From a virus, in IMG/VR virus record IMGVR_UViG_3300009285_004982: 62,247 nucleotides of DNA; one strand, 5' to 3'. Below, in pieces: positions 9,829 to 27,231 of this stretch. The position numbers were made by a program, and so were the translations under genes. Numbering within the stretch: the first letter of the stretch is position 1; every line of letters starts with the position of its first letter. A model generated the notes under the pieces. It was not told the DNA's origin. It made no database searches and was given only the letters and a program-made list of their open reading frames with translations.

Positions 9829-9935
9829 ATTTATAGTCCTCGTCACAATGAAACCTTGATAGGGACCGTGAACATGCGTTCACTAGGGAGACGGTTAGTA
9901 TGAAACATAGTGTGACGTAAGGAGGAGGAAAGATT

Positions 9936-12048: not shown

Positions 12049-13125
12049 ATGGAATTGATGACCGAACAAGCGATGGCAATGGACTATATCGGTGACATTA
12101 CGAATCAGGTCACCAGGGAAGGCAAAAATGATTTATGGCGTGAGAATACACTCAAAAATAGGGCCTATTTCTCAAAAGGGAATCCCGATCTCACGGGACT
12201 GACATCCTTCGTCGTCGCCGCCGGACCCAGCCTGGAAAAGAATGTCCATCTTTTAAAAACGATATCGCCAAGAGGTGTCATCGTCTGCGTTGATGCGGCC
12301 ATGCGGTTCCTTGTTCAGAATGGAATCTATCCGGAGTATTGTGTTTCAATAGACGGATCAGAAAAGATGATCGCCATGATTGATGGGATCGATACGAGTA
12401 GAACAACACTTGTCAGCACTCCATCGGCGGCTCCCGATCTTGTAGCGAACTGGAAAGGCCAGATGTTTTTTGTTCATACCCCGCATGCCAAGGCGGATCG
12501 GGATTTCAATCATTTTCATCTCACCCGAATTGTCAAAGCAAATCGCGATATTCCAAAAGGCGATGAAATTATCGCAGACCAAGATTATGTTGTTGAATTC
12601 GAAGGGATTAATTCTCTTATCCTGACGGGCGGAAATGTGTCAACCGCAGCTCACCATTTTTCAATGCAATTTCTGAAGGCTCAACAAGTCGTATTCGTCG
12701 GTCTCGATCTATCATGGGAATATGATTCGCATCATTACGCGGGTCACGAGCATATCGAGAACACGCGCGCCCGCACGCTCACGCCTGGCGGGACACACTA
12801 TGATATTTACAAAAAAGAAGTGAAAACGAATCTGTCTCTTCTCGCATTTAAACGCTGGCATGAGGCAATGGCCAAGCAGATGAAAGGATCTGTCGTTAAC
12901 GCGACAGAAGGCGGAATCCTCGGCGTCGGTCAAGAGGGCGAGCATTTCGATTATATCGAGATCATGGATTTGAAAGACGCGATTAAAAAATACACTCCGA
13001 AAGAGTGGATCAATCAACCGAGCGAGAATTTGAATATAAAGCCTGAAGAAAAAGAAGTGGAATACGTATCCGCAACGGATATCACGAAAAAATATTCTTC
13101 GAATGGGAAAGACAAAGATGCCTGA
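12049..13125 (+). CDS. Maf / DUF115 (MptE-like) family protein, putative nonulosonic-acid glycosyltransferase, copy 1
   Basis: Signature SFVVAAGPSLEKNVHLLK...VIVCVDAAMRFLVQNGIYPEYCVSIDGS, then GGNVS...VFVGLDLSW. Confidence 0.65.
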   Translation: MELMTEQAMAMDYIGDITNQVTREGKNDLWRENTLKNRAYFSKGNPDLTGLTSFVVAAGPSLEKNVHLLKTISPRGVIVCVDAAMRFLVQNGIYPEYCVSIDGSEKMIAMIDGIDTSRTTLVSTPSAAPDLVANWKGQMFFVHTPHAKADRDFNHFHLTRIVKANRDIPKGDEIIADQDYVVEFEGINSLILTGGNVSTAAHHFSMQFLKAQQVVFVGLDLSWEYDSHHYAGHEHIENTRARTLTPGGTHYDIYKKEVKTNLSLLAFKRWHEAMAKQMKGSVVNATEGGILGVGQEGEHFDYIEIMDLKDAIKKYTPKEWINQPSENLNIKPEEKEVEYVSATDITKKYSSNGKDKDA

Positions 13126-14053
13126 ACTTCTCGTCGAAAATAAGCCGGTAGAAAATCTTCCGTCGGACAATCGTCCGATTCGAGAGCAGATGGAAGTCAT
13201 CCATAAGGCTCGCACAATCCGTACGCTCAGAAAACATAAGGGCGAATGGATTCACAATGTGAAGGAGAACTCATCGAAAATAAACAAAACGATTGCCGAT
13301 CTCTGGAAGGAACGAGATTACGGAGAAGGGATTTCCGTCGCGGCGGGCCCGTCGCTTAAGGAAGATCTCAATGATCTCAAGAAAATGCGGAAACATCGGG
13401 AACTCATCTGCGTTGATGCCTCGTTAGGATTTCTTGTCGATAACGGATTGACGCCTGATTTCTGTGTGACGACCGATTTCTCCGACAAAATACTTCTCAT
13501 GTTAAATCGAGGAGATAAGCCGATTGATACGTCAAACATAAAATTGATTGCCAACGTTATTACTCATCCAAAAGTCATCGAAAAATGGAAGGGAGAAGTC
13601 TATTGGTTCGTGATGATGAATAACGTATACGATATCGATTATCAAAAATTCATGGACGACATGCACGCATTAGAAACAAAAGTTGGAGCGAAGCTCGCTC
13701 CCGGCGGCAACGTCAGTTCGATTGCGCTCGGATTCGGACTATCCGTCAGAAACTACGAGAAGATTATCCTATACGGACACGACTTCTGCTGGAAGCCGGA
13801 AGGAGATTTCTATGCTGGAGGATCGTTCAAAGAACTTGAAAAAGAAAGGATGGAAAAAGAAGGGACGGCTGGCACAATTTTTGATGATACCAATACGAAG
13901 GGAGAGAAAGTTCTTACAAACCTTTCACTGCAGCAGTTTGCCAAATGGCATGAAGAAGCAACTCGATATATGAGACACCGGATCGACAACCGGACGAGTT
14001 GCACAATTTTAAATATCAAGCCGACGAATAATCATTCGACGAATAGTCGTTAG
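13103..14053 (+). CDS. Maf / DUF115 family protein, copy 2
   Basis: ISVAAGPSLKEDLNDLKK...LICVDASLGFLVDNGLTPDFCVTTDFS, then GGNVSS...ILYGHDFCW. Overlaps copy 1 by 23 nt. Confidence 0.65.
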   Translation: MGKTKMPELLVENKPVENLPSDNRPIREQMEVIHKARTIRTLRKHKGEWIHNVKENSSKINKTIADLWKERDYGEGISVAAGPSLKEDLNDLKKMRKHRELICVDASLGFLVDNGLTPDFCVTTDFSDKILLMLNRGDKPIDTSNIKLIANVITHPKVIEKWKGEVYWFVMMNNVYDIDYQKFMDDMHALETKVGAKLAPGGNVSSIALGFGLSVRNYEKIILYGHDFCWKPEGDFYAGGSFKELEKERMEKEGTAGTIFDDTNTKGEKVLTNLSLQQFAKWHEEATRYMRHRIDNRTSCTILNIKPTNNHSTNSR

Positions 14054-14079
14054 ATAAACGTCGGATCAAGGAGGAGACA

Positions 14080-15054
14080 ATGAAAGAAATATGGGATTTA
14101 AAATCCATACGGGAAGCATCAACACGCTCGGAGTTCTATCAGTTTTTAAACGTGGGGCTAAAAGACCTCATGTTCAAGGCTTACAGAACGGCCAAAACGA
14201 CCTATCCGGCCATCGTCACATTCGAGGAATCGGATAAGGCGAAAGAAGGATATCCATCCACCGGTAACGTGGCCCTGCCGGAACAGGTTCTGGAAGGCGC
14301 TCCATTCATCGAGAGGACGATTCCGCCCGAGGATTTTGTTGAGGTCACAAATCATAAATATGGTGAGATCATTTCTATCACGGAAGAACTGATTGAGGAT
14401 GATAAGACCAACCAGATCAAACGGTTGCCGATGGATCTCGGAAATGCTCATGCGAAGAAAGAAGACAAAACAGTCTATTCGATCATCAATGGGAATCCGA
14501 CGATTTATGATGGTGGTGCGTTTTTCGCTCTGAATCATCCTGGTTATACGGGTGGAGCGGCCATCGCTGCGAACGATAACATTTACACGAATGTGACTCT
14601 CTCGGCTAATGCGCTCGCCGTCGCCCTCGGTATCATCGGCGGATGGACGGGACACTCGACGGAAGATCTTTTGGATGTCGTGGCCACGGCGCTCGTGGTT
14701 CCGACGAATCTTAAATATACAGCCAATCTCCTGACCAAGAGTGCATTTGCCCCATGGGCTTATGCGGCTGGAGCACTTGGTCCAGCGGCGACAACGGGAC
14801 AAGGAAAAAATGTGTTGGCCGAAGAAGGATTGGAAGTTATTTCATCTCCTCGTCTTGACGTGACATCAACAACCGATTGGTATATCAAAACTGACTTCGT
14901 CGGGATTCTATTCCAATGGAGACAGAAACTTGGTCTCTTTGAGGAACCGGAAGAAGCCGGAAGCCGGTTTGAGAGAGATGTGCGACGATGGAAATCGCGA
15001 AGCCGTTGGGCAACGAAGGTTCTCAACTGGCGCGGAATGTTTAAGGTTTCATAA
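14080..15054 (+). CDS. Major capsid protein (HK97 fold)
   Basis: 324 aa, RBS AAGGAGGAG. Contains PEQVLEGAPFIERTI...VTNHKYGEIISITEELIEDD, typical of Mu gpT-like / HK97-fold capsid proteins. Located after the scaffold and decoration genes. Confidence 0.7.
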   Translation: MKEIWDLKSIREASTRSEFYQFLNVGLKDLMFKAYRTAKTTYPAIVTFEESDKAKEGYPSTGNVALPEQVLEGAPFIERTIPPEDFVEVTNHKYGEIISITEELIEDDKTNQIKRLPMDLGNAHAKKEDKTVYSIINGNPTIYDGGAFFALNHPGYTGGAAIAANDNIYTNVTLSANALAVALGIIGGWTGHSTEDLLDVVATALVVPTNLKYTANLLTKSAFAPWAYAAGALGPAATTGQGKNVLAEEGLEVISSPRLDVTSTTDWYIKTDFVGILFQWRQKLGLFEEPEEAGSRFERDVRRWKSRSRWATKVLNWRGMFKVS

Positions 15055-15074
15055 GAAAAATTGATTATTATTTT

Positions 15075-15124
15075 ACCCGCGCGGTTGGCGTCTAGACTCC
15101 CTCTTTACGTTTGACCGCGCGGAT
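15075..15124 (+). other. GC-rich stem-loop after the capsid gene
   Basis: ACCCGCGCGGT (15075..15085) and ACCGCGCGG (15114..15122) share the self-complementary CCGCGCGG and can pair. No T-run follows. Confidence 0.3.
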
Positions 15125-15162
15125 AAAGTAGACGGGTAATTCCCGTTAGGGAGGAATCATAA

Positions 15163-15861
15163 ATGACAGCTGAATTAGGGAAAGTAAAGGATCTTCCCAT
15201 CTCGGATTTGAAAGCCGGGATGAAGGTCCAGAAAGATGTTATTGGGTATGGTGGAAAGATATTGGTGAACGCCGGTGAAGTCTTGAGCCATAAGCATGTC
15301 ACCCAGCTCACCAAATGGGAAGGCCGTTCACAGCCGCCAGGCCCTGTTCTGGCAAAAGAGAAACCATCGAATAAGAATGAACCTCTTCGTCGCGGGCCAG
15401 CGCCCGAGCGGTGGAAAGTCAGTCATTTCAATCCCCAGGGAATACGCGTATCCAACACATTGGCAAGCGGAGATCTGAATCCGGCAGTCGAACAGAATAT
15501 TGAGCTCTCTCCTCGATTCCAGAAAGAAACCCCAAGATCGTCGTTCTCGCCGGGTCCTATCGACATCCCTTCTCCTCTTGAGAGGTCTATGGAACTCAGG
15601 ACCGAGATCAAGACGCTTGAGGGAATGAATGCCGAGCTCGGAGGTCGCCTTTGGGATGATCCGACGAATTATGCCGGGGAATCCGAATTGTCAGGTCGTA
15701 AGCTAGGGTTGATTGAAGATAATAAAAGATTGATCAGCGGACTGAAAGCCAGCCGATCAATCGGACGATTGTCCGATGGGAATGGACATGAATCGGCAAC
15801 CCAGAGTGAAACGCTGATCGTGAAACGGAAACGAGGACGACCACGGAAAGATGCCGCTTAA
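15163..15861 (+). CDS. Hypothetical protein with a basic AT-hook-like C-terminus (KRKRGRPRK)
   Basis: 232-aa ORF, RBS GGGAGGAA. Confidence 0.5.
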   Translation: MTAELGKVKDLPISDLKAGMKVQKDVIGYGGKILVNAGEVLSHKHVTQLTKWEGRSQPPGPVLAKEKPSNKNEPLRRGPAPERWKVSHFNPQGIRVSNTLASGDLNPAVEQNIELSPRFQKETPRSSFSPGPIDIPSPLERSMELRTEIKTLEGMNAELGGRLWDDPTNYAGESELSGRKLGLIEDNKRLISGLKASRSIGRLSDGNGHESATQSETLIVKRKRGRPRKDAA

Positions 15862-16117
15862 ACATCCCGATCAATTGGCCGCCCAGAGATGGTGTTCGGA
15901 TCAGATCCGTTCGGATCTTAAAGCTGGGCGGTCGATGTTGGAATTTCCGATTCATGATATAGAGAATAAGGCGCGGGCCGATATGGAAGAGAAGAATACG
16001 AAGGCGGATCTCTTGACGGGAGGGGGGAATATCTTCCAGGTCTATTATCATGATAAGCCGGTGATTGTTCAAATGAGGCCTCTGGCTTCACGGACGATTA
16101 AATTGTTTTTCGATTAA
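15851..16117 (+). CDS. Hypothetical protein
   Basis: 88-aa ORF overlapping the upstream stop. Confidence 0.4.
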   Translation: MPLKHPDQLAAQRWCSDQIRSDLKAGRSMLEFPIHDIENKARADMEEKNTKADLLTGGGNIFQVYYHDKPVIVQMRPLASRTIKLFFD

Positions 16118-16144
16118 TTAATTAATGACTAATGGGGGACATTT

Positions 16145-16483
16145 ATGGCACTCGATGCTTACAACGCACCAATACAAAAAACGGAATACGGATTCCCGCG
16201 AAGTGTTATTTCTGGAGAATTAGCAGGATCAGCATCCGCCGCACAGATGCCGAATATACAGGCATTCCTTGTCAATTTTAAAGCTGTTAGTAGCAATGCG
16301 GGCGATGTCTATATTGGCGGGCAAGGCGTGACAGTTGTCGATGGAACGACGGATGCAACGACAGGCCTTGAGCTTGCAGCCAGCGAACAGACGGGATGGA
16401 TTCCATGCGAGAATCTAAACCAATTTTATCGTATCTGTGATAACGCAGGGGATGATTTGACTTATATTGCTTTACAGAGGTAA
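16145..16483 (+). CDS. Hypothetical protein (possible structural)
   Basis: 112-aa ORF, RBS GGGGGA. Confidence 0.45.
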   Translation: MALDAYNAPIQKTEYGFPRSVISGELAGSASAAQMPNIQAFLVNFKAVSSNAGDVYIGGQGVTVVDGTTDATTGLELAASEQTGWIPCENLNQFYRICDNAGDDLTYIALQR

Positions 16484-16489
16484 ACATCC

Positions 16490-17209
16490 ATGTCTTTCAT
16501 ACCCATATTAAGCCAATCTTTGGCAAAGAAAGGATTTCTTCCAACAAACATATCCGGCTTGTTATATTGGTTTCGATCCGATAAGGGTGTATTAGATGCA
16601 GTTGGCGCTCCTGCTGACCCGGATGATCCTGTCGATACATGGCAAGATCAGAGCGTGAATGCGAAACATCTAACTCAAACAACAGATGCAAATCGTCCGT
16701 TACTAAAATCAAACGTGATTAATGGTCATCCAACAATACGTTTTGATGGAAGTAACGATAGAATGACGACCTCAAGTTTCACCGAAATTCAACCGCATCA
16801 CAGAATATACGTGCTTAAGATTATTACTCTTGTGAATAGCGATTATCTCTACGATGGGCTACCATCAACTGATAAAGGTGCCGCTTTTATGGATGGATCA
16901 GGGAATGTATCGCTTTCGTCAGGATCTATTGCATGTGCTAGATTATATGGAAATTCTTCTTTTGTGATCGGATCGGCTTTTTTCAGTGGGGCTAGTTCTT
17001 CTCATTCCGTTAATAACGGAACTGCCGCAACCGGGAATGCTGGGACGGGTGCTCCGGGAGGTCTTACATTGGGATCTGCTCGCGGCGGTATTGCTCCTGG
17101 AAATATTGATGTCGCTGAATTCATGGGATATAACGCGCAGATAACTGGTACTAATTTGACGAATCTCATGAATTATTTATCTGAACGTTATGCGATTACA
17201 TTGGGATGA
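16490..17209 (+). CDS. Hypothetical protein with a LamG/concanavalin-like motif
   Basis: VDTWQDQSVNAKHLTQTTDANRPLL...NGHPTIRFDGSNDRM is typical of LamG-type lectin-fold domains. Confidence 0.4.
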   Translation: MSFIPILSQSLAKKGFLPTNISGLLYWFRSDKGVLDAVGAPADPDDPVDTWQDQSVNAKHLTQTTDANRPLLKSNVINGHPTIRFDGSNDRMTTSSFTEIQPHHRIYVLKIITLVNSDYLYDGLPSTDKGAAFMDGSGNVSLSSGSIACARLYGNSSFVIGSAFFSGASSSHSVNNGTAATGNAGTGAPGGLTLGSARGGIAPGNIDVAEFMGYNAQITGTNLTNLMNYLSERYAITLG

Positions 17210-17418
17210 CAGTATCTCATATTCAGAAATCTTCACGGATTCAGATCGGCTCTGAAAATGAATCGCTGACTATTCCGGCTCCTGATTCCGGACGATACAA
17301 TTGCCTGGAATCAATAACCGTTGAATCAAGTGCCGGATCTGATATGACGATAACATCGGGATCGAAGACGTTTAAGGTAGCAATTGGTCCGGGAAGCGGA
17401 TGGAAAGAGAAATTTTAA
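17206..17418 (+). CDS. Hypothetical protein
   Basis: 70-aa ORF overlapping the upstream stop. Confidence 0.4.
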   Translation: MTVSHIQKSSRIQIGSENESLTIPAPDSGRYNCLESITVESSAGSDMTITSGSKTFKVAIGPGSGWKEKF

Positions 17419-17422
17419 GCTC

Positions 17423-18187
17423 ATGATCTATTTCGTCCCCGCACGAAAAGACTCGAAACGAATACCGAACAAGAACACGCTTAAAGTTCTCGGGAAACCG
17501 CTTATTCAATACACGCTCGATCTAGTTTCGGAAATGAGTAAAGATAAGTCCTACTCAGGACCCGTCTACGTGTCAACCGACGACGAGGTGATTATCCAGA
17601 TCGCCAAGAGCTATGGATTCAACTGGTACAAGCGAGACGAGGAATTGTGTTCCGACAGGGCAAAGATGTCGGACGTTCTTTTCGATGCCGTTAATTTATT
17701 CGAATTAGAGGAGAAGGATATCTGCGTTTTATATCCGACGAGCCCGCTTCGTCTTGCCGATCATGTGAGAGAGGCCTGTATCGTCTGGAAACAGAAACAG
17801 AATCCGGTGTCAACTCTTATGAGCGTCTGTCCCGTTCTCTATCGTCCCTATGGTCTTATGGAGATACAGGCGAATGGGTTTCTCCACTGTAAACATCCAT
17901 ATGGCGAACTCTTCTATCAGGGACAGAATCAGCCAGTCGATTACCGGGCGAATGGGGCGATCTATATCATCCCTAAACAGGTCATTTTAAAACGAGAAAT
18001 CAATTCCCAACTTTTCAACAAAACGACGATCCCGTATGTGATGGACCCGATCAGCAGCCTTGAGATCGACACGCCGGAAGATATCCTGATCGCCGAGCAC
18101 TATCTATCAAAAAAAAATACAGCCAAATTTATCTACTCCCCTACTGTGACGAATCCGAAGGATTCCTATGCCTTCAGTTCTCATTAA
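17423..18187 (+). CDS. neuA: Acylneuraminate (nonulosonate) cytidylyltransferase, CMP-NulO synthetase family
   Basis: N-terminus MIYFVPARKDSKRIPNKNTLKVLGKPLIQYTLD matches the CTP_transf_3 signature. The ORF track start (TTG 17384) overlaps the upstream gene, so ATG 17423 is preferred. Confidence 0.75.
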   Translation: MIYFVPARKDSKRIPNKNTLKVLGKPLIQYTLDLVSEMSKDKSYSGPVYVSTDDEVIIQIAKSYGFNWYKRDEELCSDRAKMSDVLFDAVNLFELEEKDICVLYPTSPLRLADHVREACIVWKQKQNPVSTLMSVCPVLYRPYGLMEIQANGFLHCKHPYGELFYQGQNQPVDYRANGAIYIIPKQVILKREINSQLFNKTTIPYVMDPISSLEIDTPEDILIAEHYLSKKNTAKFIYSPTVTNPKDSYAFSSH

Positions 18188-19925
18188 TGTCCGGCCCTAT
18201 GTCTATCCAGGCGATGTTGTCGATAAACTAGATCGCAACTGCATAAAGAACGCCAAAATCCTTTTTATCAATATGCCACTCCGGGAGACAGCAGTTCCAA
18301 ATTGCCTTCCCCTTGGCCCCGCTCTTCTTGCCGCCACATTAAGACAATGGGAAGCCGTTCCGACGATGATCGATCTGAATGCCTATCGATTCAAAGATGC
18401 GAATGCAGAACTCAAAGGACTCAAAAACGGACGGACGATAAACGAGGTCGAGGCGGCGGATCTCATTCGAGGACACATTCGTGTCCATAGAATGCCGGAT
18501 ATGGTGGCCATGTCAGGCATGATTACAACCCTTAGATGGCAAATGACTGTCGCCAAAATTGTCAGGAATCTCATGCCGGATGTTTTCCTGGTAACAGGAA
18601 ATGGTCTGGCGACTGAATTCAAGGAAGGTCTTTTCCAGTGGATACCTGAACTCGATGGCGTGGCCCACTCGGAGGGTGATCTTTCGATCATCAAGATGAC
18701 ATACGATGCCGTTCAAATCAAACGCCTCGGTCAACACGGAGCCTATCTTTCAGGGAATCTTGACCCCTATTGTCTCGGTCTAGTTGGATCAAATGAAACG
18801 AATGTTTCAAAGTACCGGTTTCTATATGATGGTGGGCGTCCTAAGAACTTGGATGATCTCTCATTCCCGGCTTATGATCTCCTAGAGAAAGATGTGAATG
18901 GGTTTCCAGTTCTAGAAACTTATATCAAGAATGAAATATGGGGACTTAAGGCCAACAATTCAAGTGCAACATCATTCACAATGAAGAGGTCAATCAATAC
19001 CGTATCGAGCAGAGGATGTCCGTTTCAGTGTTCGTATTGTTTCCGTGGAGCTACTGGCGAACGAAATTATGCTGTTCGATCCGCCAAGAATTTAGCCGAG
19101 GAATTCATTCACTATGCAGACAAATATAATATCGACTTCGTGGGGGTAACGGATGATAACTTTTGTGTTCAACGAAAACGAATCCTTGATATGGAACCGT
19201 ACTTCATACCCCTCGTACGAAAGTCGAATATCCGTTGGGGGACCCATGCTCGTTTGGACGAAGCCGCAGATCTCACGCCGAATCGTCATGGTGAAGGATT
19301 TATATTCAACAACCCGAAACGAGTCGATAGTATGGCCAAATCTGGATGTGTCTATATCGGATTCGGAGGGGAAAGCGCCCATAAAACAACTCTCGAAAAC
19401 ATGGGAAAAGGTGGATTCATATTGGTCAACGGATTCGTAAATTGGCGTGGATTCGAATTCCCGCGAACGATGGTCGAGGGAATAAAGAACACCAAATATT
19501 CCGGAATCGACGCAAATTGTACTTGGATCAGACAGTTTCCAGGTGAAACCCTTGATCAATTAAAAACAACAATCGCTTTTATTATGTGGCAAAAGGAATT
19601 TTATTCTCAGTTCGGAGATGGTTCCGAATCGGTAAATCGCAATATGTTCGTGGCAACAGCATATCCTGGAACGGAAATGTTCAAACATCCAATCGTCCGA
19701 CAGAAACTTCACGACAATTTCGGAATCAATTACGATCAATTCGGAACTCCCGTTATCGACGATAATCTGAAATATTATGTTCTAGAGTTGGACGATGCTG
19801 ACAAAATTATGAAAGATCAACAGGGGAGAATTTTGAATTATGGCGAGCTGACAGAAGATCAGTTCATGGAAGCGGATGGATACGTGAAATCAAATCGGAT
19901 AGAAAAAATACTGGAGATGAAATGA
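18168..19925 (+). CDS. Radical SAM enzyme with an N-terminal B12-binding-like domain
   Basis: CxxxCxxC cluster motif SSRGCPFQCSYCF. The N-terminal region (LFINMPL...LPLGPALLAA) resembles class-B radical SAM proteins. Confidence 0.75.
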   Translation: MPSVLINVRPYVYPGDVVDKLDRNCIKNAKILFINMPLRETAVPNCLPLGPALLAATLRQWEAVPTMIDLNAYRFKDANAELKGLKNGRTINEVEAADLIRGHIRVHRMPDMVAMSGMITTLRWQMTVAKIVRNLMPDVFLVTGNGLATEFKEGLFQWIPELDGVAHSEGDLSIIKMTYDAVQIKRLGQHGAYLSGNLDPYCLGLVGSNETNVSKYRFLYDGGRPKNLDDLSFPAYDLLEKDVNGFPVLETYIKNEIWGLKANNSSATSFTMKRSINTVSSRGCPFQCSYCFRGATGERNYAVRSAKNLAEEFIHYADKYNIDFVGVTDDNFCVQRKRILDMEPYFIPLVRKSNIRWGTHARLDEAADLTPNRHGEGFIFNNPKRVDSMAKSGCVYIGFGGESAHKTTLENMGKGGFILVNGFVNWRGFEFPRTMVEGIKNTKYSGIDANCTWIRQFPGETLDQLKTTIAFIMWQKEFYSQFGDGSESVNRNMFVATAYPGTEMFKHPIVRQKLHDNFGINYDQFGTPVIDDNLKYYVLELDDADKIMKDQQGRILNYGELTEDQFMEADGYVKSNRIEKILEMK

Positions 19926-20557
19926 TTGATACGGAAACGATGAGAGAAAGACCAAGGCCCGCGTTCACGAAAGAAAGATTCTATGTCGATCACATGATGA
20001 AACACGGAATGGCTCTCTATCGTCGCCACGTGAGCCGCTACAAGTGGGCGGCCAGCCATCTAACCAGTGAGATGGAAGTGCTTGATGCCGGATGCGGTTC
20101 TGGTTATGGGGATTACATCCTGCTCAACAATTGCCTTAAGATGACATCCATTGACCAATCGGGAGAAGCCATCGAGTACGCGACTTATAAAGCTGAATCA
20201 TTGAATGAGAAGCGGATCAAGTATGGTGTTTCTACACTCCAGGATTATATGGCGAGTCCATCAAAATCTCATGCCATTGTCTGTATCGAGGTCATCGAAC
20301 ATTTGTCGGAAGAGAATCAACGCGCGTTTATGGCCGGGATGAAAAACGCGTTCTTCAAAAAAGAGGATGCCTTGTTGTTAATCACGACTCCGATCAGAAA
20401 AGAAGATAAATGGACTGAGTATCATGAACACGAATTCACGAAGTCTGAATTCCAGAATTTCCTATCAACCTATTTTCAGGATGTCCACTTCGAGGATCAG
20501 AAGAAATGGGATATACCGCATGATTTCCTATTAGGTGTATGTAGGGGCGTGCGATAA
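19922..20557 (+). CDS. Class I SAM-dependent methyltransferase
   Basis: Motif I VLDAGCGSGYGD and post-I IVCIEVIEHL. Confidence 0.7.
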   Translation: MIDTETMRERPRPAFTKERFYVDHMMKHGMALYRRHVSRYKWAASHLTSEMEVLDAGCGSGYGDYILLNNCLKMTSIDQSGEAIEYATYKAESLNEKRIKYGVSTLQDYMASPSKSHAIVCIEVIEHLSEENQRAFMAGMKNAFFKKEDALLLITTPIRKEDKWTEYHEHEFTKSEFQNFLSTYFQDVHFEDQKKWDIPHDFLLGVCRGVR

Positions 20558-21966
20558 TGAAACTATTCGGTAATGAGATCGGGAAAGGAAAAACACTTAT
20601 CTGTGTGGAAATTGGGATCTGCCATCAGGGAAATATGTCGATGGCCATCGAGATGATCGACATCGCCAAGGAGTGTGGGGCTGACGTTGTAAAGTTCCAA
20701 AAGAGGTCACTCAAACATCTTTATCGGAAGCCAGTCCTGGATAACCCGTCCGACGCCGCCCATTCTCTCGGCGTCTATATCCCGATCTTGGAGAAATGCG
20801 AGCTGACTGAGGACGAACATATCCGGCTGAAAAAGCATTGTGACGAGATAGGCATTCCTTACTTTTGCTCACCGTGGGATACGCCATCGATTGACTTCCT
20901 CGAATCTCTTGGGGTCGAGGCCTATAAGGTGCCGAGTGCCCTGATGTCGGATATATTTCATTTAGAGAGAATAATCAAAACAGGTAAGCCTTTTATTTTA
21001 TCTACTGGAATGCATTATGAAGACGAAATAGATGAAATCATGAAATTCATTGATGAGAAGGCAGAAGCAGAAAATGTTCCACGTGGCGTTCCACATAAAC
21101 AGATTATAGAATTGACGGATGAAATTTTGTCGATGCGGAAAAGAGGCACGCCAAAATCAACGGACGTGTCTAGAATGCCATCGGAATTATATGCGATGGT
21201 GGAAAAAATACAATCCCTTGACAAAAGAACAGAGATTCAAAATGAATTGTCGATCCTATACGCACGTTTATGTGAAGCGGGGAATAATCCAGAAGAATCC
21301 ATGCGAATTTTGTGGGGAAGCCAATGTACAGGCTCACCATACCGATTACAGCAAACCACTGAAAGTTCAATGGCTTTGCAAGACCCACCATCATTCACTC
21401 CATCGATCCCTCTCAAACAACGCATTGCATTGATGCACTGCGTCTCGAGCTATCCGACAGCCAACAAAGACATCAACCTGAACTATATGGGGGTCATGCG
21501 GGCCAAATACGGCCTTCCTGTCGGCTTCTCCGGCCATGAGCGCGGGATTCCCATCACCGTGGCCGCTGTGGCGCTGGGTGCACCAATCATAGAACGCCAC
21601 TTTACCCTAGATAGAACCCTTCCGGGGCCGGATCATGCCGCCAGCCTCGAACCACACGGCCTAGAAACGCTTGTGAGGCACATTAGGGCCGTTGAAGAGG
21701 CCTTGGGCGACCGGAAGGTCGTCAATCGCGGGGAATACATGGCCCGCGAGACTTTGGGGAAGATCTTAACCTGGGCTCAGGATCTCGAATCGAATTCGCC
21801 AGTAGGCGCACATTCATTTACAGCTTCGAGCCCAGGCTATGGTGTTCCGGTCTACAAGGGGCCCAAGTTTGTTGATATGCAATTGGTAACGACCAAGCCC
21901 GTCAGGGCCGGGGAACCTGTTTTTGAAACTGAATTGACTTATGGGAAAAAGGGAGAAAACGAATGA
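20557..21966 (+). CDS. neuB: Nonulosonic (sialic / legionaminic / pseudaminic-type) acid synthase, NeuB family, with an in-frame insertion of about 120 aa
   Basis: LICVEIGICHQGNMSMAIEMIDIAKECGADVVKFQKR, ILSTGM, ALMHCVSSYP, GFSGHE, IERHFTLDR..GPDHAASLEP, plus a C-terminal SAF-like domain. E. coli NeuB has about 20 aa between STGM..EI and ILHC; here there are about 140. Confidence 0.8.
   Translation: MKLFGNEIGKGKTLICVEIGICHQGNMSMAIEMIDIAKECGADVVKFQKRSLKHLYRKPVLDNPSDAAHSLGVYIPILEKCELTEDEHIRLKKHCDEIGIPYFCSPWDTPSIDFLESLGVEAYKVPSALMSDIFHLERIIKTGKPFILSTGMHYEDEIDEIMKFIDEKAEAENVPRGVPHKQIIELTDEILSMRKRGTPKSTDVSRMPSELYAMVEKIQSLDKRTEIQNELSILYARLCEAGNNPEESMRILWGSQCTGSPYRLQQTTESSMALQDPPSFTPSIPLKQRIALMHCVSSYPTANKDINLNYMGVMRAKYGLPVGFSGHERGIPITVAAVALGAPIIERHFTLDRTLPGPDHAASLEPHGLETLVRHIRAVEEALGDRKVVNRGEYMARETLGKILTWAQDLESNSPVGAHSFTASSPGYGVPVYKGPKFVDMQLVTTKPVRAGEPVFETELTYGKKGENE
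21119..21433 (+). CDS. HNH endonuclease-like ORF nested in an alternative frame inside the neuB insertion
   Basis: 104 aa: CRCG...CLECH...NPCEFCGEANVQAHHTDYSKPLKVQWLCKTHHHSLH, which is a beta-beta-alpha-Me / zinc-ribbon pattern of small phage HNH proteins. The frame is offset from neuB. Weak RBS. Confidence 0.55.
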   Translation: MKFCRCGKEARQNQRTCLECHRNYMRWWKKYNPLTKEQRFKMNCRSYTHVYVKRGIIQKNPCEFCGEANVQAHHTDYSKPLKVQWLCKTHHHSLHRSLSNNALH

Positions 21967-22787
21967 AACGAGGATGCAAGGCAAGGCCGCACGATATCGA
22001 CCAAGTGATTGAGATATTCAAGCCGGAACTGATTGAGATTCACGCAAGCTCTGAAGATCTCAAGAAAGAGTTTAACAAAGACTACGATCTACCTCTCGTT
22101 GTTCATCTTCCAGAATATGATCAGTCTGAGCTTATCGACGTAGCCTCCCTGGATGAGAAGAAACGAATCCAGGCGGTCAAGTTCTATAACAACGCCATGA
22201 ACGTGACGCGCAATTGGAGTAAGCGGTTTCGCGGGACTCCAAAATCCGTGCTCCATCCTGGGGGTATTAGTATCGAGCCAACGAACGCTTTGCAGAAACG
22301 GGAAATGTATGAGCAGCTTGGGAAATCGTTATCGGAAATCAACTCGCTGGGAGTGGATTTATTGCTTGAGAACATGCCGCCAAACCCTGTATTTTTTGGA
22401 GGCAGTTGGAAGTGCAACATATTCCTAGCGCCGCGAGATTGCATTGATTTTTGCAGCGGTCTTGGCTATGGTTTCGTATTCGACACATCACATGCCGGAA
22501 TGTTTTGTAATTCGGTAGAAAATGAAATAGATATTATGAAGTTTGCGACAATGGTCAGACCCGTGACGGCCCATATTCACTTAAACGATTGTAGGGATGT
22601 TGACCAAGAAGGGCTTGCTCTTGATTCGGGCACATTGGATTGGAGATCCGTTATTAGATATTTCGAATCTATGCCAATTGGTGTTGTCAGCGAGTGTTGG
22701 AACGGCCACAAGGATTCATGTCGAGGATTTATCGAGGATTGGAAAAAGGTTGACGAAGCGTTGAAAAAGGAAACGGTAGAAGGATAA
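21963..22787 (+). CDS. Xylose-isomerase-like TIM-barrel protein (sugar phosphate isomerase/epimerase family)
   Basis: VVHLPEYD...VLHPGG...LLLENMPP...FDTSHAGMF...HIHLND pattern. Confidence 0.5.
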   Translation: MKRGCKARPHDIDQVIEIFKPELIEIHASSEDLKKEFNKDYDLPLVVHLPEYDQSELIDVASLDEKKRIQAVKFYNNAMNVTRNWSKRFRGTPKSVLHPGGISIEPTNALQKREMYEQLGKSLSEINSLGVDLLLENMPPNPVFFGGSWKCNIFLAPRDCIDFCSGLGYGFVFDTSHAGMFCNSVENEIDIMKFATMVRPVTAHIHLNDCRDVDQEGLALDSGTLDWRSVIRYFESMPIGVVSECWNGHKDSCRGFIEDWKKVDEALKKETVEG

Positions 22788-22791
22788 CAAA

Positions 22792-23085
22792 ATGGCGGAA
22801 ATGACTGAAGCGGAAATCATAACTAAAATAAATTTAATCGATACAGCGATTGCGACCATCACTACCAATTTGGCAGCGGGCGGAAGCGGGGCCGTGGAGT
22901 ACGTTGATTATAGCATGGGAAGCAAAACTGTTGCCGGATCTCAGACATTGAAGCAACTCATGGAAGCAAGAAAATTATATGAAGATCTTTTAAGAAAAAT
23001 ACCTTCCGTAACAATGAGAGACCATGGATATAGCGTCAAGGATGGTAGCGGTGAAAATGAAACTGAATATGTCGGAGATGAGTGA
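22792..23085 (+). CDS. Putative head-tail joining protein (gpW-like)
   Basis: 97 aa, positioned at the start of the connector block. Helix - GG..V.Y....K - helix pattern. Confidence 0.35.
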   Translation: MAEMTEAEIITKINLIDTAIATITTNLAAGGSGAVEYVDYSMGSKTVAGSQTLKQLMEARKLYEDLLRKIPSVTMRDHGYSVKDGSGENETEYVGDE

Positions 23086-23086
23086 A

Positions 23087-23842
23087 TTAAATATGTTTCC
23101 ATATTTTACAAGAAATGATTTTAAATATATGAGATGCCTTAATTTTAAACATACGCATAAGATCGCATTGTCGCATTCCTGTTTCATAATATTTTCTTAT
23201 TTGTTTAACTTTGTGTTCTGTAAGTCTTGCTCGATAATGTTTTTCGCCATCAATTCCGCGACCTTTTATATACATATCATGAACATTATCCAACTGAGTA
23301 CCAAGAAACAAATGCGCCGGATTGCAACACGATGGATTATCACCGCCGGGGCAATTGTGGAGAACATGAATTCCTTCTGGGATTGGGCCGTTATGAATTT
23401 CATAAGAGATTCGATGCGAAAAGAGAGTAGAATGTTTTCCTTTTTTATAATCGCCCATTATTCCATAGCCATACGGCAATTTATTTCCAAGCCATATCCA
23501 GCATGTTGGTGTTTTTTTAATAAATTTCCAAAATCTTTTTTCTATTGGGAGTTTTACGGGACCTGTTTTTTTAAATGGTATTGATATCAAATGATCGAAT
23601 GCAATGCATTTATTATTTCCGCAAAAATTCATAATTGTATAGCGGGATTGAAGTGGTTGATTAAAAGTCCATATAATATTTCTAATCCATATTTTCGTTT
23701 TATTAATTTCTTTTTTTATATAAGGCCTATTCGAATCAATTGCGCCATGCCATTCCAAACATTCTCCATTTTGTTTAATCTTATCGGAGAAAAAGAGAAG
23801 AAATTCGTTAAAGCTTTTAAAATTGGTAGGATATTTCTGCAT
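23087..23842 (-). CDS. Free-standing HNH (HNH_3-type) homing endonuclease
   Basis: 251 aa on the minus strand in an AT-rich island. CWIWLGNKLPYGYG...FSHRISYEIHNGPIPEGIHVLHNCPGGDNPSCCNPAHLFLGTQLDNVHD. It has a second N-terminal half-domain CLEWHG...CGNNKCIAFDHL. Confidence 0.8.
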   Translation of the reverse strand: MQKYPTNFKSFNEFLLFFSDKIKQNGECLEWHGAIDSNRPYIKKEINKTKIWIRNIIWTFNQPLQSRYTIMNFCGNNKCIAFDHLISIPFKKTGPVKLPIEKRFWKFIKKTPTCWIWLGNKLPYGYGIMGDYKKGKHSTLFSHRISYEIHNGPIPEGIHVLHNCPGGDNPSCCNPAHLFLGTQLDNVHDMYIKGRGIDGEKHYRARLTEHKVKQIRKYYETGMRQCDLMRMFKIKASHIFKIISCKIWKHI

Positions 23843-23917
23843 TGGGACTTACCTCCTAATGTCATGCCTCTGGTCGCTAATACGACGCAGGGGCTTTTAT
23901 ATTGGAGATTATACTAA

Positions 23918-24283
23918 ATGACCATTGCTGATCATACAACAGGTCTTGTCGCAACAACACTTTGGGGCGAAAGCGTTATTGTCCGTCGGAACTCACCAAA
24001 TTTTAGCGACACCGGGGTAGCCACCGATTCTTGGGCGACAGTTGTCACCGTAAACGCGGATCTCCAGCCTTTGGCTCCCGGATCTCTTGCCACAGTCGCC
24101 ATCGGTGAGATGAGGACTTCGACCCATCGATTTTATTTCCCTGATGGAACAGATATATTGGAGGGAGATCGAATCAGACCATCCGGATGGGTTGCGGGAG
24201 ATGATGAATTCGTGGTTACTGGGGTTATGGACGATGAGGGGCATTTTGAAGTCTACGCCCAGAGGGTGAGGGGACATGGCTGA
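23918..24283 (+). CDS. Head-tail adaptor / head closure protein (SPP1 gp16-like)
   Basis: 121 aa. NADLQPLAPG...STHRFYFP...ILEGDRI...FVVTGVMDDEGHFEVYA matches the Phage_H_T_join pattern. Confidence 0.55.
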   Translation: MTIADHTTGLVATTLWGESVIVRRNSPNFSDTGVATDSWATVVTVNADLQPLAPGSLATVAIGEMRTSTHRFYFPDGTDILEGDRIRPSGWVAGDDEFVVTGVMDDEGHFEVYAQRVRGHG

Positions 24284-24734
24284 CTATATTGAGATAGAAG
24301 TCGATAGTGTTTCATTGGCGAAAACGATTGCTGCCTTGAAAAAGAAGGGTGTTGATTATAAGAAAACGGCGGTCAAAGCGCTTGATTGGGGCGCATCTGA
24401 AATCGAGAAGCATGCAAAGGAACGCCATTTCTTTGTTGGTACTGGACGCAACGCAGCGAAGAAAGCAAAAGACGGTGAACTGAAATTCACGAATCCTGAT
24501 GGTTCTTTGCGATTCAAGGTAAGAACAGGAGGTTTGACGGCTAGTATTCATCCAAAGGATTCGAAAGTTGTTGGCGATACGGTGACGGCCTCGGTAATAG
24601 CGGGTGCTAAATATGCGGAAGATGTAGAAAAAGGAATTGGTCACCGGGCCTTTCCTTTTTTAAGACCAGCCCTGGAAGCAAATAGAAACAAGATTCTTGC
24701 ACGATTGATTTCTGATTTAAAGGCATTGGTTTAA
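24276..24734 (+). CDS. HK97 gp10-family tail/neck component
   Basis: AKYAEDVEKGIGHRAFPFLRPALEAN is typical of the gp10 family. Confidence 0.55.
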   Translation: MADYIEIEVDSVSLAKTIAALKKKGVDYKKTAVKALDWGASEIEKHAKERHFFVGTGRNAAKKAKDGELKFTNPDGSLRFKVRTGGLTASIHPKDSKVVGDTVTASVIAGAKYAEDVEKGIGHRAFPFLRPALEANRNKILARLISDLKALV

Positions 24735-24735
24735 T

Positions 24736-25209
24736 ATGGAAAAGGTCGATGAGGCCATTTACAAAACATTACGCGACGATAGCGAAGCATCGGTTGGAAT
24801 CCGGGCACTATTGGGAAATACCACGACAACCCCTTACAATACATACCATGCTTTCCTTCCCGACAACATCGATTTTTCTCCGGCTGCTGGCAATGTAGGA
24901 TTTATTGTCTATATGAGAATATCAAGCACGCCGGATCTTGGCGTCCATAGTTTGTCAACGCTAACAGAACAAAGCGTATATCAGATATCGGCCTATCATC
25001 GAGTATTGTCTTCCGTTGAGGCCATCCATCGTCGAATTAAGAAGCGATTATTGCGTCTCGATCATGTAACGCAGCCAACGAGTCAATCCGGTCTTTATCA
25101 ATTGCTTTTGGAATCGGAAGATCCGGTGACGTTTGATGATTCGTTCAAAGTCTGGTTTCAACAGAAATATTATCGCGCATGGGTGAGGGACGATGACATT
25201 ATCTCCTAA
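24736..25209 (+). CDS. Putative tail terminator / tail completion protein (DUF3168-like)
   Basis: 157 aa, sits between gp10-like and tail tube genes. N-terminus VDEAIYKTLRDD...LLGN. Confidence 0.4.
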   Translation: MEKVDEAIYKTLRDDSEASVGIRALLGNTTTTPYNTYHAFLPDNIDFSPAAGNVGFIVYMRISSTPDLGVHSLSTLTEQSVYQISAYHRVLSSVEAIHRRIKKRLLRLDHVTQPTSQSGLYQLLLESEDPVTFDDSFKVWFQQKYYRAWVRDDDIIS

Positions 25210-26452
25210 AGATGAACATCTCAAGACGAAAATAGAAATACATCGTAAACAACGCAAACGAATCATGAATGAATTTCGTGATATATACACTTTTTTTTCA
25301 AATGATGAGGCGGAGATAATTGACGGCGAAAACGGAGCGACCCTCTTCGCCCTCAATGGATCGAAGAATGAATTCAAGAAGGAAGATCGTATTTTCTCCG
25401 ACGGGAGAGTCTATGACGTGATGAACATCCAGAAACATGAACTGGCTGATCTTAAATTCAAGGTCGCGGTAACGAAACAGAATGAATTCGAGACCCAGAT
25501 TAAGAAACTTCAGGATTTTGGATGCCATGTCGAATATGGGGTAACGCGACCCATTGTCCAGCGCGATTATGCGAGTGAGGATTATCTGAACGATTGGGTT
25601 GGACTCTATATCAAGAACATCGTGGCACATTATGATGAGATAAAGAACGGGCATAAAATTCAGGAATTACAGGGTCTCTTTAATCATGATATTCCGGCCC
25701 TCTGTGTAGGCGCAGGGCCGAGTTTAGATGCGAATGTGCATCTTGTCCACGAGTTCCCCGGTATTGTGATATCGACGGATAAATCATTCAAAATGCTTTT
25801 AGCCAGGAATATCATTCCTGATTTCGTGATCAGCGTGGATTGCCATCCGAATATTATCTCAGATATGCTGAGGGTACCTTATGGATTCCACACGAAATTG
25901 ATTCTCAATTCGTCGTCTGATCCAGAGATCTCAAAGCATTGGAAGGGCCCCATCTTCTATTACAACATGATCCACTACGGTGTTCAATTCATGGACAAGA
26001 TCCTGCCAGCCCTTTTCCCCGATCTTCACGGGATTATCAATTCCGGGAATGTCGGGAATTCGAGTGTCCTCTTCGCCGACTATATCGGGCTTAGTCCTAT
26101 CGTTATGATCGGACATGATTATGCTTATACGGGCGGGCGAATGCACGCGCAACGGTTCGAGATCGAGAAGGACGGAAGTGTTCGCGAGATCCGAGATGAT
26201 CACGAAAAAATGCTATTCGAGAGAACAGGGAAAGTGAAAGTTGGAGACAACGAGACGTATGTCCCATTCTTGAATTACAGGGAAACGCTATACGATTTAC
26301 GTAGTAAACGAGGTTTTGACATTATCAATTCAACAGAAGGCGGAATTTTGGAAGAAATTCCTAATATCAAATTTCAAGATGTCATTGAAGGTTTGAAACC
26401 GAAAATTGGGGATCGATATGTTGAGGCCCGTCACAAAATTAATTCCATCTAA
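25193..26452 (+). CDS. Maf / DUF115 family protein, copy 3 (with an N-terminal extension)
   Basis: PALCVGAGPSLDANVHLVHEFPGIVISTDKSFKMLLARNIIPDFVISVDCHPN, then SGNVGNSS...VMIGHDYAY. Confidence 0.65.
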   Translation: MTLSPKDEHLKTKIEIHRKQRKRIMNEFRDIYTFFSNDEAEIIDGENGATLFALNGSKNEFKKEDRIFSDGRVYDVMNIQKHELADLKFKVAVTKQNEFETQIKKLQDFGCHVEYGVTRPIVQRDYASEDYLNDWVGLYIKNIVAHYDEIKNGHKIQELQGLFNHDIPALCVGAGPSLDANVHLVHEFPGIVISTDKSFKMLLARNIIPDFVISVDCHPNIISDMLRVPYGFHTKLILNSSSDPEISKHWKGPIFYYNMIHYGVQFMDKILPALFPDLHGIINSGNVGNSSVLFADYIGLSPIVMIGHDYAYTGGRMHAQRFEIEKDGSVREIRDDHEKMLFERTGKVKVGDNETYVPFLNYRETLYDLRSKRGFDIINSTEGGILEEIPNIKFQDVIEGLKPKIGDRYVEARHKINSI

Positions 26453-26466
26453 GGAGGAATATACTT

Positions 26467-27231
26467 ATGTCAGTTCAAGTGACAAATTTGCTTCTCGGTC
26501 AAGGGGAGCTTTATTTTAAAAGACATGACGGCACGAGTGGAAAATATAGACGTGTCGGATCGCTAAAAGGTGTGGTCACATTAACGCATGAAGTCGAATA
26601 TGCTGAGCAACAGCCAGGCAATAAATTGACGTCTGCTAGGAGGGATAAGATTAGGGAAAAAGCGATTCTCACGGCGAATGTGTGCGATTTCAAAATACCT
26701 CAGTTAATTGCCGCCCTCGGCCAATCTATATCGACTACACAGCTCACGGTTACATCAACGCTTCGCGTCTGGGAAGAAATCCAGCTCGGAGCATCGACGA
26801 CAACGGAAGTAACCTTAAGCCGATTGCCTGTTTCGATGACAAGTGTTGTTGTCACGGAAATGGACGAGTCTGCCGTTCTCGTAAAGGGAACAGATTACTC
26901 GTCAAGCATCCCACAGCATCTAGTCCCAAAGTCTGCAAGCTTCAAGAACAAATGGGTCAGGGCAGCCTATGATTACAAAGATGCCAGTGCAACAGTGATG
27001 AGAGTGGGGGATAAATTCACGCTTCAAGTTGTCGATCTAAAATATACGTTCAAGGAATTACAGAGTGGCAAATTCATTACTATTGAAATTCCACGGGCAA
27101 CGATTAATGGCGGGCTTGAAATTCCTTTCGCGATGAATGAATACACGCAATACCAAATTACGTTTTCGGCGCTCGGTGATATGACCCAACCGGAAGGGCG
27201 ATCCTTATTTAAAGTAATTCGGGAAGCGTAA
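26467..27231 (+). CDS. Major tail (tube) protein
   Basis: 254 aa, RBS AAGGAGGAA. N-terminus LLLGQGELYFKR...VGSLKGVVTL. Located immediately upstream of the chaperone and tape-measure genes. Confidence 0.55.
   Translation: MSVQVTNLLLGQGELYFKRHDGTSGKYRRVGSLKGVVTLTHEVEYAEQQPGNKLTSARRDKIREKAILTANVCDFKIPQLIAALGQSISTTQLTVTSTLRVWEEIQLGASTTTEVTLSRLPVSMTSVVVTEMDESAVLVKGTDYSSSIPQHLVPKSASFKNKWVRAAYDYKDASATVMRVGDKFTLQVVDLKYTFKELQSGKFITIEIPRATINGGLEIPFAMNEYTQYQITFSALGDMTQPEGRSLFKVIREA

Follow-up and report, generated by a model that had tools for sequence, protein, structure and literature searches.

A putative ulosonic-acid glycosylation module among the head and tail genes of an uncultivated siphovirus

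Cassette and Maf-like genes in the structural block

The window analysed here is the whole 62,247-nucleotide (nt) IMG/VR virus record IMGVR_UViG_3300009285_004982, and its subject is a cassette of five sugar-acid enzyme genes (17423-22787) that lies, together with three genes for glycosyltransferases resembling motility associated factors (Mafs), in the head and tail region. The assembly is circularly closed, with an exact 77-nt terminal overlap (1-77 and 62171-62247), and thus represents a complete genome of ~62,170 bp. The genome is that of an uncultivated, lytic-looking tailed phage (siphovirus). The list of open reading frames (ORFs) places five co-oriented genes in the cassette, all overlapping or abutting, with successive overlaps of 20, 4, 1 and 4 nt. 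In the list below, CMP is cytidine monophosphate, SAM is S-adenosylmethionine, PEP is phosphoenolpyruvate, TIM is triosephosphate isomerase and aa is amino acids.

17423..18187 (+): CMP-ulosonic-acid synthetase (NeuA/PseF-like cytidylyltransferase); CTP_transf_3, E = 2.2e-16
18168..19925 (+): radical SAM enzyme of the B12-binding type (class B, methylase-like); Radical_SAM, E = 2.1e-10, with a CPFQCSYC motif
19922..20557 (+): class I SAM-dependent methyltransferase; Methyltransf_25, _31, _23 and _11, E from 4e-10 to 1.6e-7
20557..21966 (+): NeuB-family PEP-condensing synthase, 469 aa, interrupted in frame; NeuB PF03102, E = 2e-78
21963..22787 (+): xylose-isomerase-like TIM barrel (AP_endonuc_2), partner of NeuB; PF01261, E = 4.6e-17

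Profile and structure searches (Pfam, PDB and Foldseek) upheld all five identities at the family level, as a first-pass annotation had proposed them from the letters, and the family scores are far beyond chance. The cytidylyltransferase scored 60.7 bits against CTP_transf_3 (Pfam cut-off 22.6), and its best PDB relatives, the CMP-N-acetylneuraminic acid (Neu5Ac) synthetases 6IFD and 1EYR, aligned over the full length (residues 4-231, E ~ 1e-22). The radical SAM enzyme reached 41.4 bits against PF04055 (cut-off 29.5), its CPFQCSYC providing the CxxxCxxC cluster motif. Its nearest PDB entries were the B12 radical SAM methylases TokK (residues 110-176, E = 1.6e-7) and CysS; scores against the NCBIfam methylase models were all far under the cut-offs, with weak matches to HpnJ and BchE. 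NeuB scored 263.6 bits against PF03102 (cut-off 22.1) in two stretches split by an insertion, and the uninterrupted orthologue of the related locus L001 scored 263.8 bits. Its PDB matches were Neu5Ac and pseudaminic acid synthases, and the motifs EIG..H.G, KFQKR, SGHERG and ERHFT...GPDH aligned with N. meningitidis NeuB/SiaC. Residues E18, K46, Q48, H327, E328, H348 and D359 were invariant in 26 homologues; roles as metal ligands are described for them in the literature. The TIM barrel was modelled by AlphaFold2 (AF2) with a predicted local distance difference test (pLDDT) score of 92. Its best Foldseek matches were EndoIV and ketose 3-epimerases (UlaE, D-psicose and D-tagatose 3-epimerases), at template modelling (TM) scores of 0.6-0.72. 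A PDB sequence search found no match for the TIM barrel, nor for three further proteins discussed below (p328, a BNR-like protein and a nested ORF).

The structural genes and the Maf-like genes are arranged around the cassette as follows.

12049..13125 (+): Maf-like transferase 1 (Maf1), 358 aa, short form; MptE-like PF01973, E = 5.4e-28
13103..14053 (+): Maf-like transferase 2 (Maf2), 316 aa; MptE-like, E = 4e-25; NCBIfam flagellin modification PseD domain, E = 3.6e-12
14080..15054 (+): major capsid protein; Phage_capsid_4, E = 1.4e-22; Mu-like gpT, E = 8e-10
23918..25209 (+): head closure, Neck1/tail completion and tail terminator genes; PHROGs 501, 5, 347 and 123
25193..26452 (+): Maf-like transferase 3 (Maf3), 419 aa; MptE-like, E = 1.8e-27; PDB 5MU5, E = 3.7e-4
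26467..27231 (+): major tail protein with an Ig-like domain; phrog_807, E = 2.6e-11

The first-pass annotation had described five overlapping, co-oriented genes between the capsid and connector genes. The ORF list and the structural-gene matches confirm this order, with the capsid gene upstream and the connectors downstream (head closure starts at 23918, Neck1 at 24276, tail terminator at 24736 and tape measure at 27925), but the cassette does not adjoin the capsid gene, from which five small ORFs (15163-17418) set it apart. A promoter and terminator scan of the region gave no excess over shuffled sequence, and a repeat scan of 15000-24000 found no meaningful repeats. Searching the whole window against Rfam at the gathering threshold identified no intron and no other RNA family; likewise, no tRNAs were found in it.

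Maf1 and Maf2 lie directly upstream of the capsid gene, and Maf3 between the tail terminator and tail-tube genes, just before the latter. The three proteins scored 98.3, 89.0 and 96.6 bits against the MptE-like/DUF115 model (cut-off 34.6). Maf1 aligned at 30% identity with a bacterial "motility associated factor glycosyltransferase" of 603 aa, over residues 219-445 of the latter, and Maf3 aligned with residues 223-436 of the bacterial Maf P0469 (603 aa); overall, the phage proteins were 26-30% identical to residues ~219-445 of P0469, the central catalytic domain. The motifs AGPSL(D/E)(K/A)N and ATEGG are common to the phage proteins and the named bacterial Maf, and the structure matched by Maf3, 5MU5, is presumably that of the Magnetospirillum Maf. 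At mutual identities of 22-28% (28% for Maf1 and Maf2), the three genes are old paralogues. None of the three is more than 8 kb from the cassette, here or in seven related loci, and they belong to the same system as the cassette.

The order p328, Maf1, Maf2, capsid protein, p232, cytidylyltransferase, radical SAM enzyme, methyltransferase, NeuB, TIM barrel, connectors, Maf3, tail tube recurs in loci L001, L002, L007, L009, L010 and L011/L012, of which L007 is an NCBI metagenome contig and the others are IMG/VR contigs. Over the cassette and flanking structural genes, L001 and L002 showed 74-96% amino-acid identity to the window, with weaker matches for the connector genes of L001. At least seven related loci keep this arrangement, and across them capsid identity falls from 91% to 39% and NeuB identity to 45-50%. 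Since the genes are still interleaved with head and tail genes at 39% capsid identity, the module behaves as part of the virion programme and not as a transient moron. The first-pass annotation had taken the placement to suggest late co-expression with the virion proteins, and the three Maf-like genes among capsid and tail genes, in an arrangement kept over this distance, strengthen the virion-linked reading.

The module was not found in any of the 50,697 deposited GenBank phage genomes searched. By tblastn, neither Maf3 nor the radical SAM enzyme matched these records, NeuB gave three distant matches and the capsid protein gave only partial matches at 35% identity; megablast of 13000-27000 against GenBank phages returned no match. 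A literature search found no paper describing a phage-encoded module of Mafs and ulosonic-acid enzymes for the virion, and a large NeuB phylogeny mentions neither phages nor fusions (PMC8208679).

Accessory genes differ between the window and its close relative L001. In the window, an ORF of 112 aa and one for a 239-aa 'virion structural protein' (phrog_10356) precede the cassette (16145-17209); in L001, four extra genes (12247-14383), one of them for a Laminin_G_3 lectin-fold protein, come at the corresponding position behind it. Directly upstream of the Maf genes, a clade-specific 328-aa protein (p328) with no family match is tandemly duplicated in the window (9936-10922 and 10964-11944) and present as a single copy in L001. 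This protein may be a virion component or an acceptor for glycosylation.

Cellular relatives and the sugar route

The closest cellular homologues of NeuB are largely fusions of ~630 aa that join NeuB, SAF and AP_endonuc_2 domains. The phage TIM barrel was 28-34% identical to the C-terminal domain of these fusions, with invariant His/Glu/Asp positions. By these comparisons, the pairing of NeuB with the TIM barrel is conserved, and many cellular proteins contain the two as a fusion. In an Armatimonadetes metagenome-assembled genome (L005, 8246-11896), genes for a GHMP kinase, a cytidylyltransferase and a NeuB-SAF-TIM fusion adjoin. Orthologues of the radical SAM enzyme, ~50% identical, occur across bacteria and archaea. 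In Roseibium sp. TrichSKD4 (L086, 6269-12481) the series runs NeuB, HAD phosphatase, TylF-type methyltransferase, class I methyltransferase, radical SAM enzyme and CTP_transf_3, followed by a tetratricopeptide repeat (TPR) protein, and in a second bacterial genome the radical SAM and CTP_transf_3 genes are adjacent. The radical SAM gene therefore stands beside a cytidylyltransferase gene in both bacterial loci examined.

None of the cellular loci examined, whether of the fusion or of the radical SAM enzyme, had clustered enzymes that modify uridine diphosphate (UDP)- or guanosine diphosphate (GDP)-linked N-acetylhexosamine (HexNAc). From these contexts we infer a short route: the gene content suggests a self-contained pathway from a common sugar that would not draw on host UDP-N-acetylglucosamine (UDP-GlcNAc) steps. 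In the phage, Pfam scans of ORFs of at least 150 aa identified no dehydratase, aminotransferase, acetyltransferase or NeuC-like enzyme, and no integrase. As the genome is complete, the early UDP-GlcNAc-modifying steps are really absent from the ORFs scanned. The first-pass annotation had reported this absence, which stands; its corollary, that the host must supply the early steps, has become doubtful, because the NeuB-TIM pair and the radical SAM loci point elsewhere. One possible early sugar-nucleotide step was seen in a relative: L007 carries a gene for a nicotinamide adenine dinucleotide (NAD)-dependent epimerase/dehydratase (1-401; PF01370, weak Polysacc_synt_2) upstream of the structural block, which could provide a step absent from the window.

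The putative class B character of the radical SAM enzyme makes C-methylation plausible, though it may catalyse other B12-dependent radical SAM chemistries, such as ring contraction or cyclisation. Its adjacency to a cytidylyltransferase recalls, by analogy, Fom3, a B12 radical SAM methylase that acts on a CMP-linked substrate (PMC8158854). Two relatives carry a gene for a BNR_2 protein (a sialidase-like beta-propeller) inside the cassette, L001 at 8958-9995 and L009 at 8302-9360. The two proteins are 34% identical to each other, and the gene is missing from the window cassette. Its presence in the relatives fits a sialic-like product.

Proposed modification of the virion and its alternatives

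Taken together, the genes probably form a module, encoded by the phage within its late structural operon, that glycosylates proteins of the virion. In the proposed pathway, the TIM-barrel enzyme, which has an isomerase/epimerase fold, would supply an aldose or aldose phosphate. The NeuB-family synthase would condense this with PEP to a 3-deoxy-2-ulosonic acid of the sialic, 2-keto-3-deoxynononic acid (Kdn) or nonulosonic type, and the NeuA-like enzyme would activate the acid to a CMP-sugar. Tailoring would fall to the radical SAM enzyme and the class I methyltransferase, probably by C-methylation plus O- or N-methylation, and the CMP-linked form may be the substrate of the former. The product, made late in infection, would be a methylated ulosonic acid in CMP-activated form. 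The three diverged, short Mafs would then attach the sugar to Ser/Thr of virion proteins, in the cytoplasm before or during assembly; judging from gene position, the likeliest acceptors would be capsid-associated and tail-tube proteins. A more specific form of this proposal, in which the cassette is a self-contained route from a common sugar to an undescribed CMP-activated, C-methylated, sialic-like sugar with which the three Mafs coat capsid and tail tube, is put forward tentatively, at less than even chances.

Known Maf enzymes are consistent with a sugar of this kind. Mafs transfer CMP-activated Neu5Ac, Kdo (the sugar 3-deoxy-D-manno-octulosonate) and sugars of the legionaminic acid (Leg) type, and the Maf of Clostridium botulinum takes Neu5Ac and Kdo instead of its native legionaminic-acid-type sugar (PMC11339370). 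In view of this tolerance, the phage sugar need not be a classical one.

Several observations weigh against virion glycosylation by this pathway. NeuB scored 271.1, 273.4 and 281.6 bits (window, L001 and L007) against TIGR03569 NeuB_NnaB, under the cut-off of 399.65, and 182.7, 203.4 and 192.3 bits against TIGR03586 PseI, under the cut-off of 340.25. The cytidylyltransferases of the same three loci scored 108.8, 101.6 and 84.7 bits against TIGR03584 PseF (cut-off 205.7). Relatives without the neuB insertion likewise fell under the equivalog cut-offs for neuraminic acid (Neu) and pseudaminic acid (Pse). A clade assignment of the pair, suggested in the first-pass annotation, was approximated here by these NCBIfam scores alone as the comparison with characterised enzymes: homology to NeuB and NeuA was confirmed, but no type cut-off was reached. 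Neither enzyme can therefore be assigned to the Neu, Leg or Pse type, and an ulosonic acid of another kind, for instance with 8 carbons, could be the product. Further, the window NeuB carries a 118-residue insertion that may affect its activity, and the B12-binding domain PF02310 of the radical SAM enzyme scored 24.1 bits, under its cut-off of 32.1. The phage Mafs, at 316-419 aa, depart from the full architecture of ~600 aa; they are without the N- and C-terminal domains, and Pfam scans found no match to the Maf N-terminal domain PF20157 in them. Transferase activity and acceptor class are accordingly not assured. A capsid search in GTDB genomes returned no prophage or host match. Finally, the virion glycan and the enzyme activities are predictions from the genes, from which we also infer the identity of the sugar, the order of tailoring, the acceptors and late expression.

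A different view of the same genes keeps much of the enzymology but takes the cassette to perform only the last steps towards a classical Leg or Pse acid. NeuB, NeuA and the tailoring enzymes would work on a 2,4-diamino-trideoxyhexose derived from UDP- or GDP-HexNAc and supplied by the host, with the TIM barrel as an accessory. The lack of early enzymes among the scanned ORFs of the complete genome agrees with this, as do the epimerase/dehydratase gene upstream of the L007 structural block and the fact that PseF was the sole NCBIfam nonulosonic acid (NulO) match of the cytidylyltransferase. The NeuB scores, however, run the other way, being higher with the Neu/Leg model than with PseI while reaching neither cut-off. 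The conserved and often fused NeuB-TIM unit of cells also speaks against this view; its neighbour is a GHMP kinase at the fusion locus, and a HAD phosphatase stands beside the Roseibium NeuB, UDP-sugar enzymes being clustered with neither. Dependence on a host pathway would, moreover, limit the phage to NulO-producing hosts. We regard supply by the host as doubtful.

The target of the modification could also be the cell. Under host conversion, the cassette and Mafs would modify host flagellin, pili, S-layer, lipopolysaccharide or capsule, with the effect of blocking superinfection or of preventing progeny from adsorbing again to cells that have lysed. In bacteria, Mafs glycosylate flagellins (PMC11339370), and the phage Mafs contain NCBIfam PseD matches. 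Cyanophage sugar genes are usually read as host cell-surface modifiers (PMC12801897), and in cells, relatives of the cassette have a TPR protein gene (Roseibium) or a T2SSF gene nearby, although any tie of these to glycosylation is conjectural. Against this, the genes overlap their neighbours inside the head/tail block, the Mafs are interleaved there in every relative down to 39% capsid identity, and the scanned ORFs of the complete genome contain no integrase or lysogeny genes. The phage Mafs also lack the terminal domains of bacterial Mafs. Host conversion thus appears unlikely, and modification of the virion is the reading retained here.

The components have precedents in several systems. 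Flagellin glycosylation islands of Campylobacter, Helicobacter, Aeromonas, Clostridium and Magnetospirillum likewise bring together a NeuB-family synthase, a CMP-NulO synthetase and MptE-like (DUF115) Mafs. Tailoring methyltransferases are common in them, and they glycosylate a self-assembling structural protein in the cytoplasm, as is proposed for the phage. They differ in that the phage system sits in a head/tail operon, its Mafs are about half as long and consist of the central domain only, UDP-/GDP-HexNAc-modifying enzymes are missing, NeuB has a TIM barrel and a B12-type radical SAM enzyme as its partners, and the acceptors are presumed to be virion proteins instead of flagellin. In mycobacteriophages, the work of Freeman et al. 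2023 reportedly showed that capsid and tail-tube proteins are decorated by glycosyltransferases that the phages encode close to their structural genes; those enzymes are said to be unrelated to Maf and to use host nucleotide sugars. The phage described here, by contrast, also encodes synthesis and CMP-activation of an ulosonic sugar, and its transferases are of the Maf type.

Among other viruses, the spike protein VP4 of the haloarchaeal virus HRPV-1 bears an N-glycan with legionaminic acid (PMC6137143). That particle carries a nonulosonic acid, but sugar and machinery are the host's, whereas here they would be encoded by the virus if the model is right. Large cyanophages carry the Kdo genes kdsA and kdsB (PMC12801897) and so share virus-encoded synthesis and CMP-activation of a 3-deoxy-2-ulosonic acid. 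Their synthases, in contrast, are of the KdsA type, lie outside structural modules, are without Mafs and are read as host-surface modifiers. Kdo genes also occur in giant viruses. Of the cellular clusters, those of Roseibium and the Armatimonadetes share with the phage the radical SAM enzyme (at 50%), the NeuB-TIM pair, a cytidylyltransferase and a class I methyltransferase, and differ in having an extra kinase or phosphatase and no Maf genes nearby. The parts are thus known; what is new is the combination of an ulosonic pathway with B12 radical SAM enzyme, NeuB-TIM pair and three truncated Mafs in a structural operon that is conserved across a phage clade.

To our knowledge, glycosylation of tailed-phage virions has so far been shown only for mycobacteriophages, with host nucleotide sugars, and we know of acidic nonulosonic sugars from flagella, capsules and one archaeal virus, made by the cell in each case. 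If the model is correct, it would describe the first case of a phage particle glycosylated with a nonulosonic-type sugar by virus-encoded enzymes. Such chemistry would be new to phage surfaces and could change adsorption, particle stability, recognition by immune systems or grazers, and mucus binding; the compact Mafs, with new acceptor specificities, could serve glyco-engineering. The cassette joins widespread, uncharacterised cellular genes (NeuB-TIM fusions, B12 radical SAM enzyme with cytidylyltransferase) in a small, expressible operon, and would then provide a handle on the function of these cellular gene pairs.

Insertion in neuB and other elements of the genome

The interruption of neuB comprises an insertion and, within it, an ORF in another frame.

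21042..21426 (+): insertion in neuB, net +354 nt, ~118 codons; absent from neuB of L001 and L002 (351 aa)
21119..21433 (+, +1 frame relative to NeuB): nested ORF, 104 aa, Cys/His-rich, endonuclease-like (HNH-like); phrog_2340 'endonuclease', E = 3.4e-13

The insertion is missing from relatives whose C-terminal 180 residues are 92% identical, and alignments with PDB entries of NeuB/SiaC run on either side of a gap at NeuB residues 168-286. The loop into which the insertion falls has the helix downstream of the STGM strand on one side and the ALMHC strand on the other; in TIM barrels, such helix-to-strand loops are on the side of the barrel opposite the active site. In the AF2 model of NeuB, pLDDT exceeded 90 in the core, was 61-77 in the insert and fell below 50 at residues 255-282. 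On this model, the synthase presumably stays functional with the insert read through as a loop segment.

The nested ORF belongs to a large family: 2,032 cluster representatives matched it at E <= 1e-10, and most of them are proteins that stand alone and are 100-170 aa long. The ORF had no match among Pfam HNH models or PDB entries, and its proposed identity as a nuclease comes from the PHROG label and the pattern CxxC..HH..WLCxxHHxxxH. A second occupied allele was found at the same site in L003/L004, where both frames are open and the NeuB core is 61% identical to that of the window. Between the window and L003, the nested proteins are 56% identical and retain every Cys/His, and the peptides of the insert in the NeuB frame are only 34% identical. 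Substitutions at codon positions 1, 2 and 3 of the nested frame numbered 29, 26 and 61; the NeuB core showed the usual third-position excess in its own frame. A simulation with synonymous codons that held the nested protein and used phage codon usage gave P <= 1e-4 for each copy that the NeuB frame would be free of stops across the insert. The preceding third position was never T at the sites of risk, 27 in the window and 25 in L003. The position-biased substitutions and the stop-free NeuB frame point to selection on both frames, indicating that the nested gene is maintained as a protein and that NeuB is translated through the insertion.

Both alleles share a block at the 5' edge of the insertion (window 21071-21118, L003 1938-1985), with the conserved sequence AAAATGTTCC..GTGG..TCCACATAAACA. 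Within it, in the nested frame, runs an upstream ORF of 11 codons, whose end is 3 codons short of the nested ATG. Exactly 6 nt before this ATG stands a -10-like hexamer, TAGAAT in the window and TAATAT in L003. The ATG has no Shine-Dalgarno sequence, whereas most genes of the phage have one. The block and the missing Shine-Dalgarno sequence could reflect leaderless expression or reinitiation. On reading the two copies, no slippery site common to both was seen that would give a programmed frameshift into the nested ORF; no systematic search was made.

The occupied allele was present on 23 public metagenome contigs. Two lineages are occupied; the other neuB relatives examined (P0003-P0033 and the related loci) are of uninterrupted length, and the distribution is sporadic. 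Searches for further occupied alleles, with the DNA pattern of the 5' block in viral contigs and with insertion peptides in JGI metagenome contigs, found none. The repeat scan of 15000-24000 gave no target-site duplication around the insertion. Similarity between window neuB (20557-21966) and that of L001 (10001-11056) is mosaic, with DNA identity of 72% upstream of the insertion and 84% downstream, which suggests recombination around the insertion site.

It seems very improbable that the insertion is a self-splicing group I or II intron or an intein, or that neuB is inactivated in a decaying cassette. Close relatives do without the insertion, and two other genes, in the head-morphogenesis region, carry intein-like signals under the cut-offs, which are points in favour. 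Rfam, however, gave no intron match at the gathering threshold over the whole window, or at E up to 10 over 20800-21700; the missing Hint/intein domain in the NeuB ORF, together with the endonuclease-like ORF lying out of frame with NeuB, led us to reject an intein. Also against such readings are a NeuB frame that is free of stops in two copies only 56% identical and an occupied allele on 23 public contigs.

An insertion that is read through corresponds more closely to the ShiLan domain, the out-of-frame 'hidden' HNH insertions in DNA methylase genes of mycobacteriophages (Arsenault, Gosselin and Gogarten 2025, PMC11855218). Shared with it are absence from close homologues, a host frame free of stops, an endonuclease-like ORF in another frame, no intron or intein signature, no Shine-Dalgarno sequence before the hidden ORF and an in-frame product predicted to be a poorly ordered loop. 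In these predicted properties the neuB insertion matches the ShiLan class of hidden out-of-frame HNH elements. It differs in its host gene, a sugar synthase, in its unrelated 104-aa family with no Pfam HNH match and in its phage lineage; in addition, two diverged copies here show selection on both frames statistically. The nested gene is an independent, statistically well-supported example of such hidden, endonuclease-like elements, and the class thus extends beyond the methylases of actinophages.

The genome is unusually rich in selfish elements. In a 917-aa ORF with no family found (455-3208), possibly the portal by its position, a LAGLIDADG_3 match fell just under the cut-off, and in a MuF-like head morphogenesis gene (3162-5243) Hint and Intein_splicing matches were under theirs. 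These sequence signals suggest inteins in head-morphogenesis genes. In addition, HNH_3 endonucleases are encoded by three free-standing genes, at 23087-23842 (-), 50965-51489 and 51979-52710, the first of them in reverse orientation, after the cassette and before the connector genes. An ADP-ribosyltransferase gene (7641-8396; ADPrib_exo_Tox, E = 1.6e-20) is located within the head-morphogenesis region.

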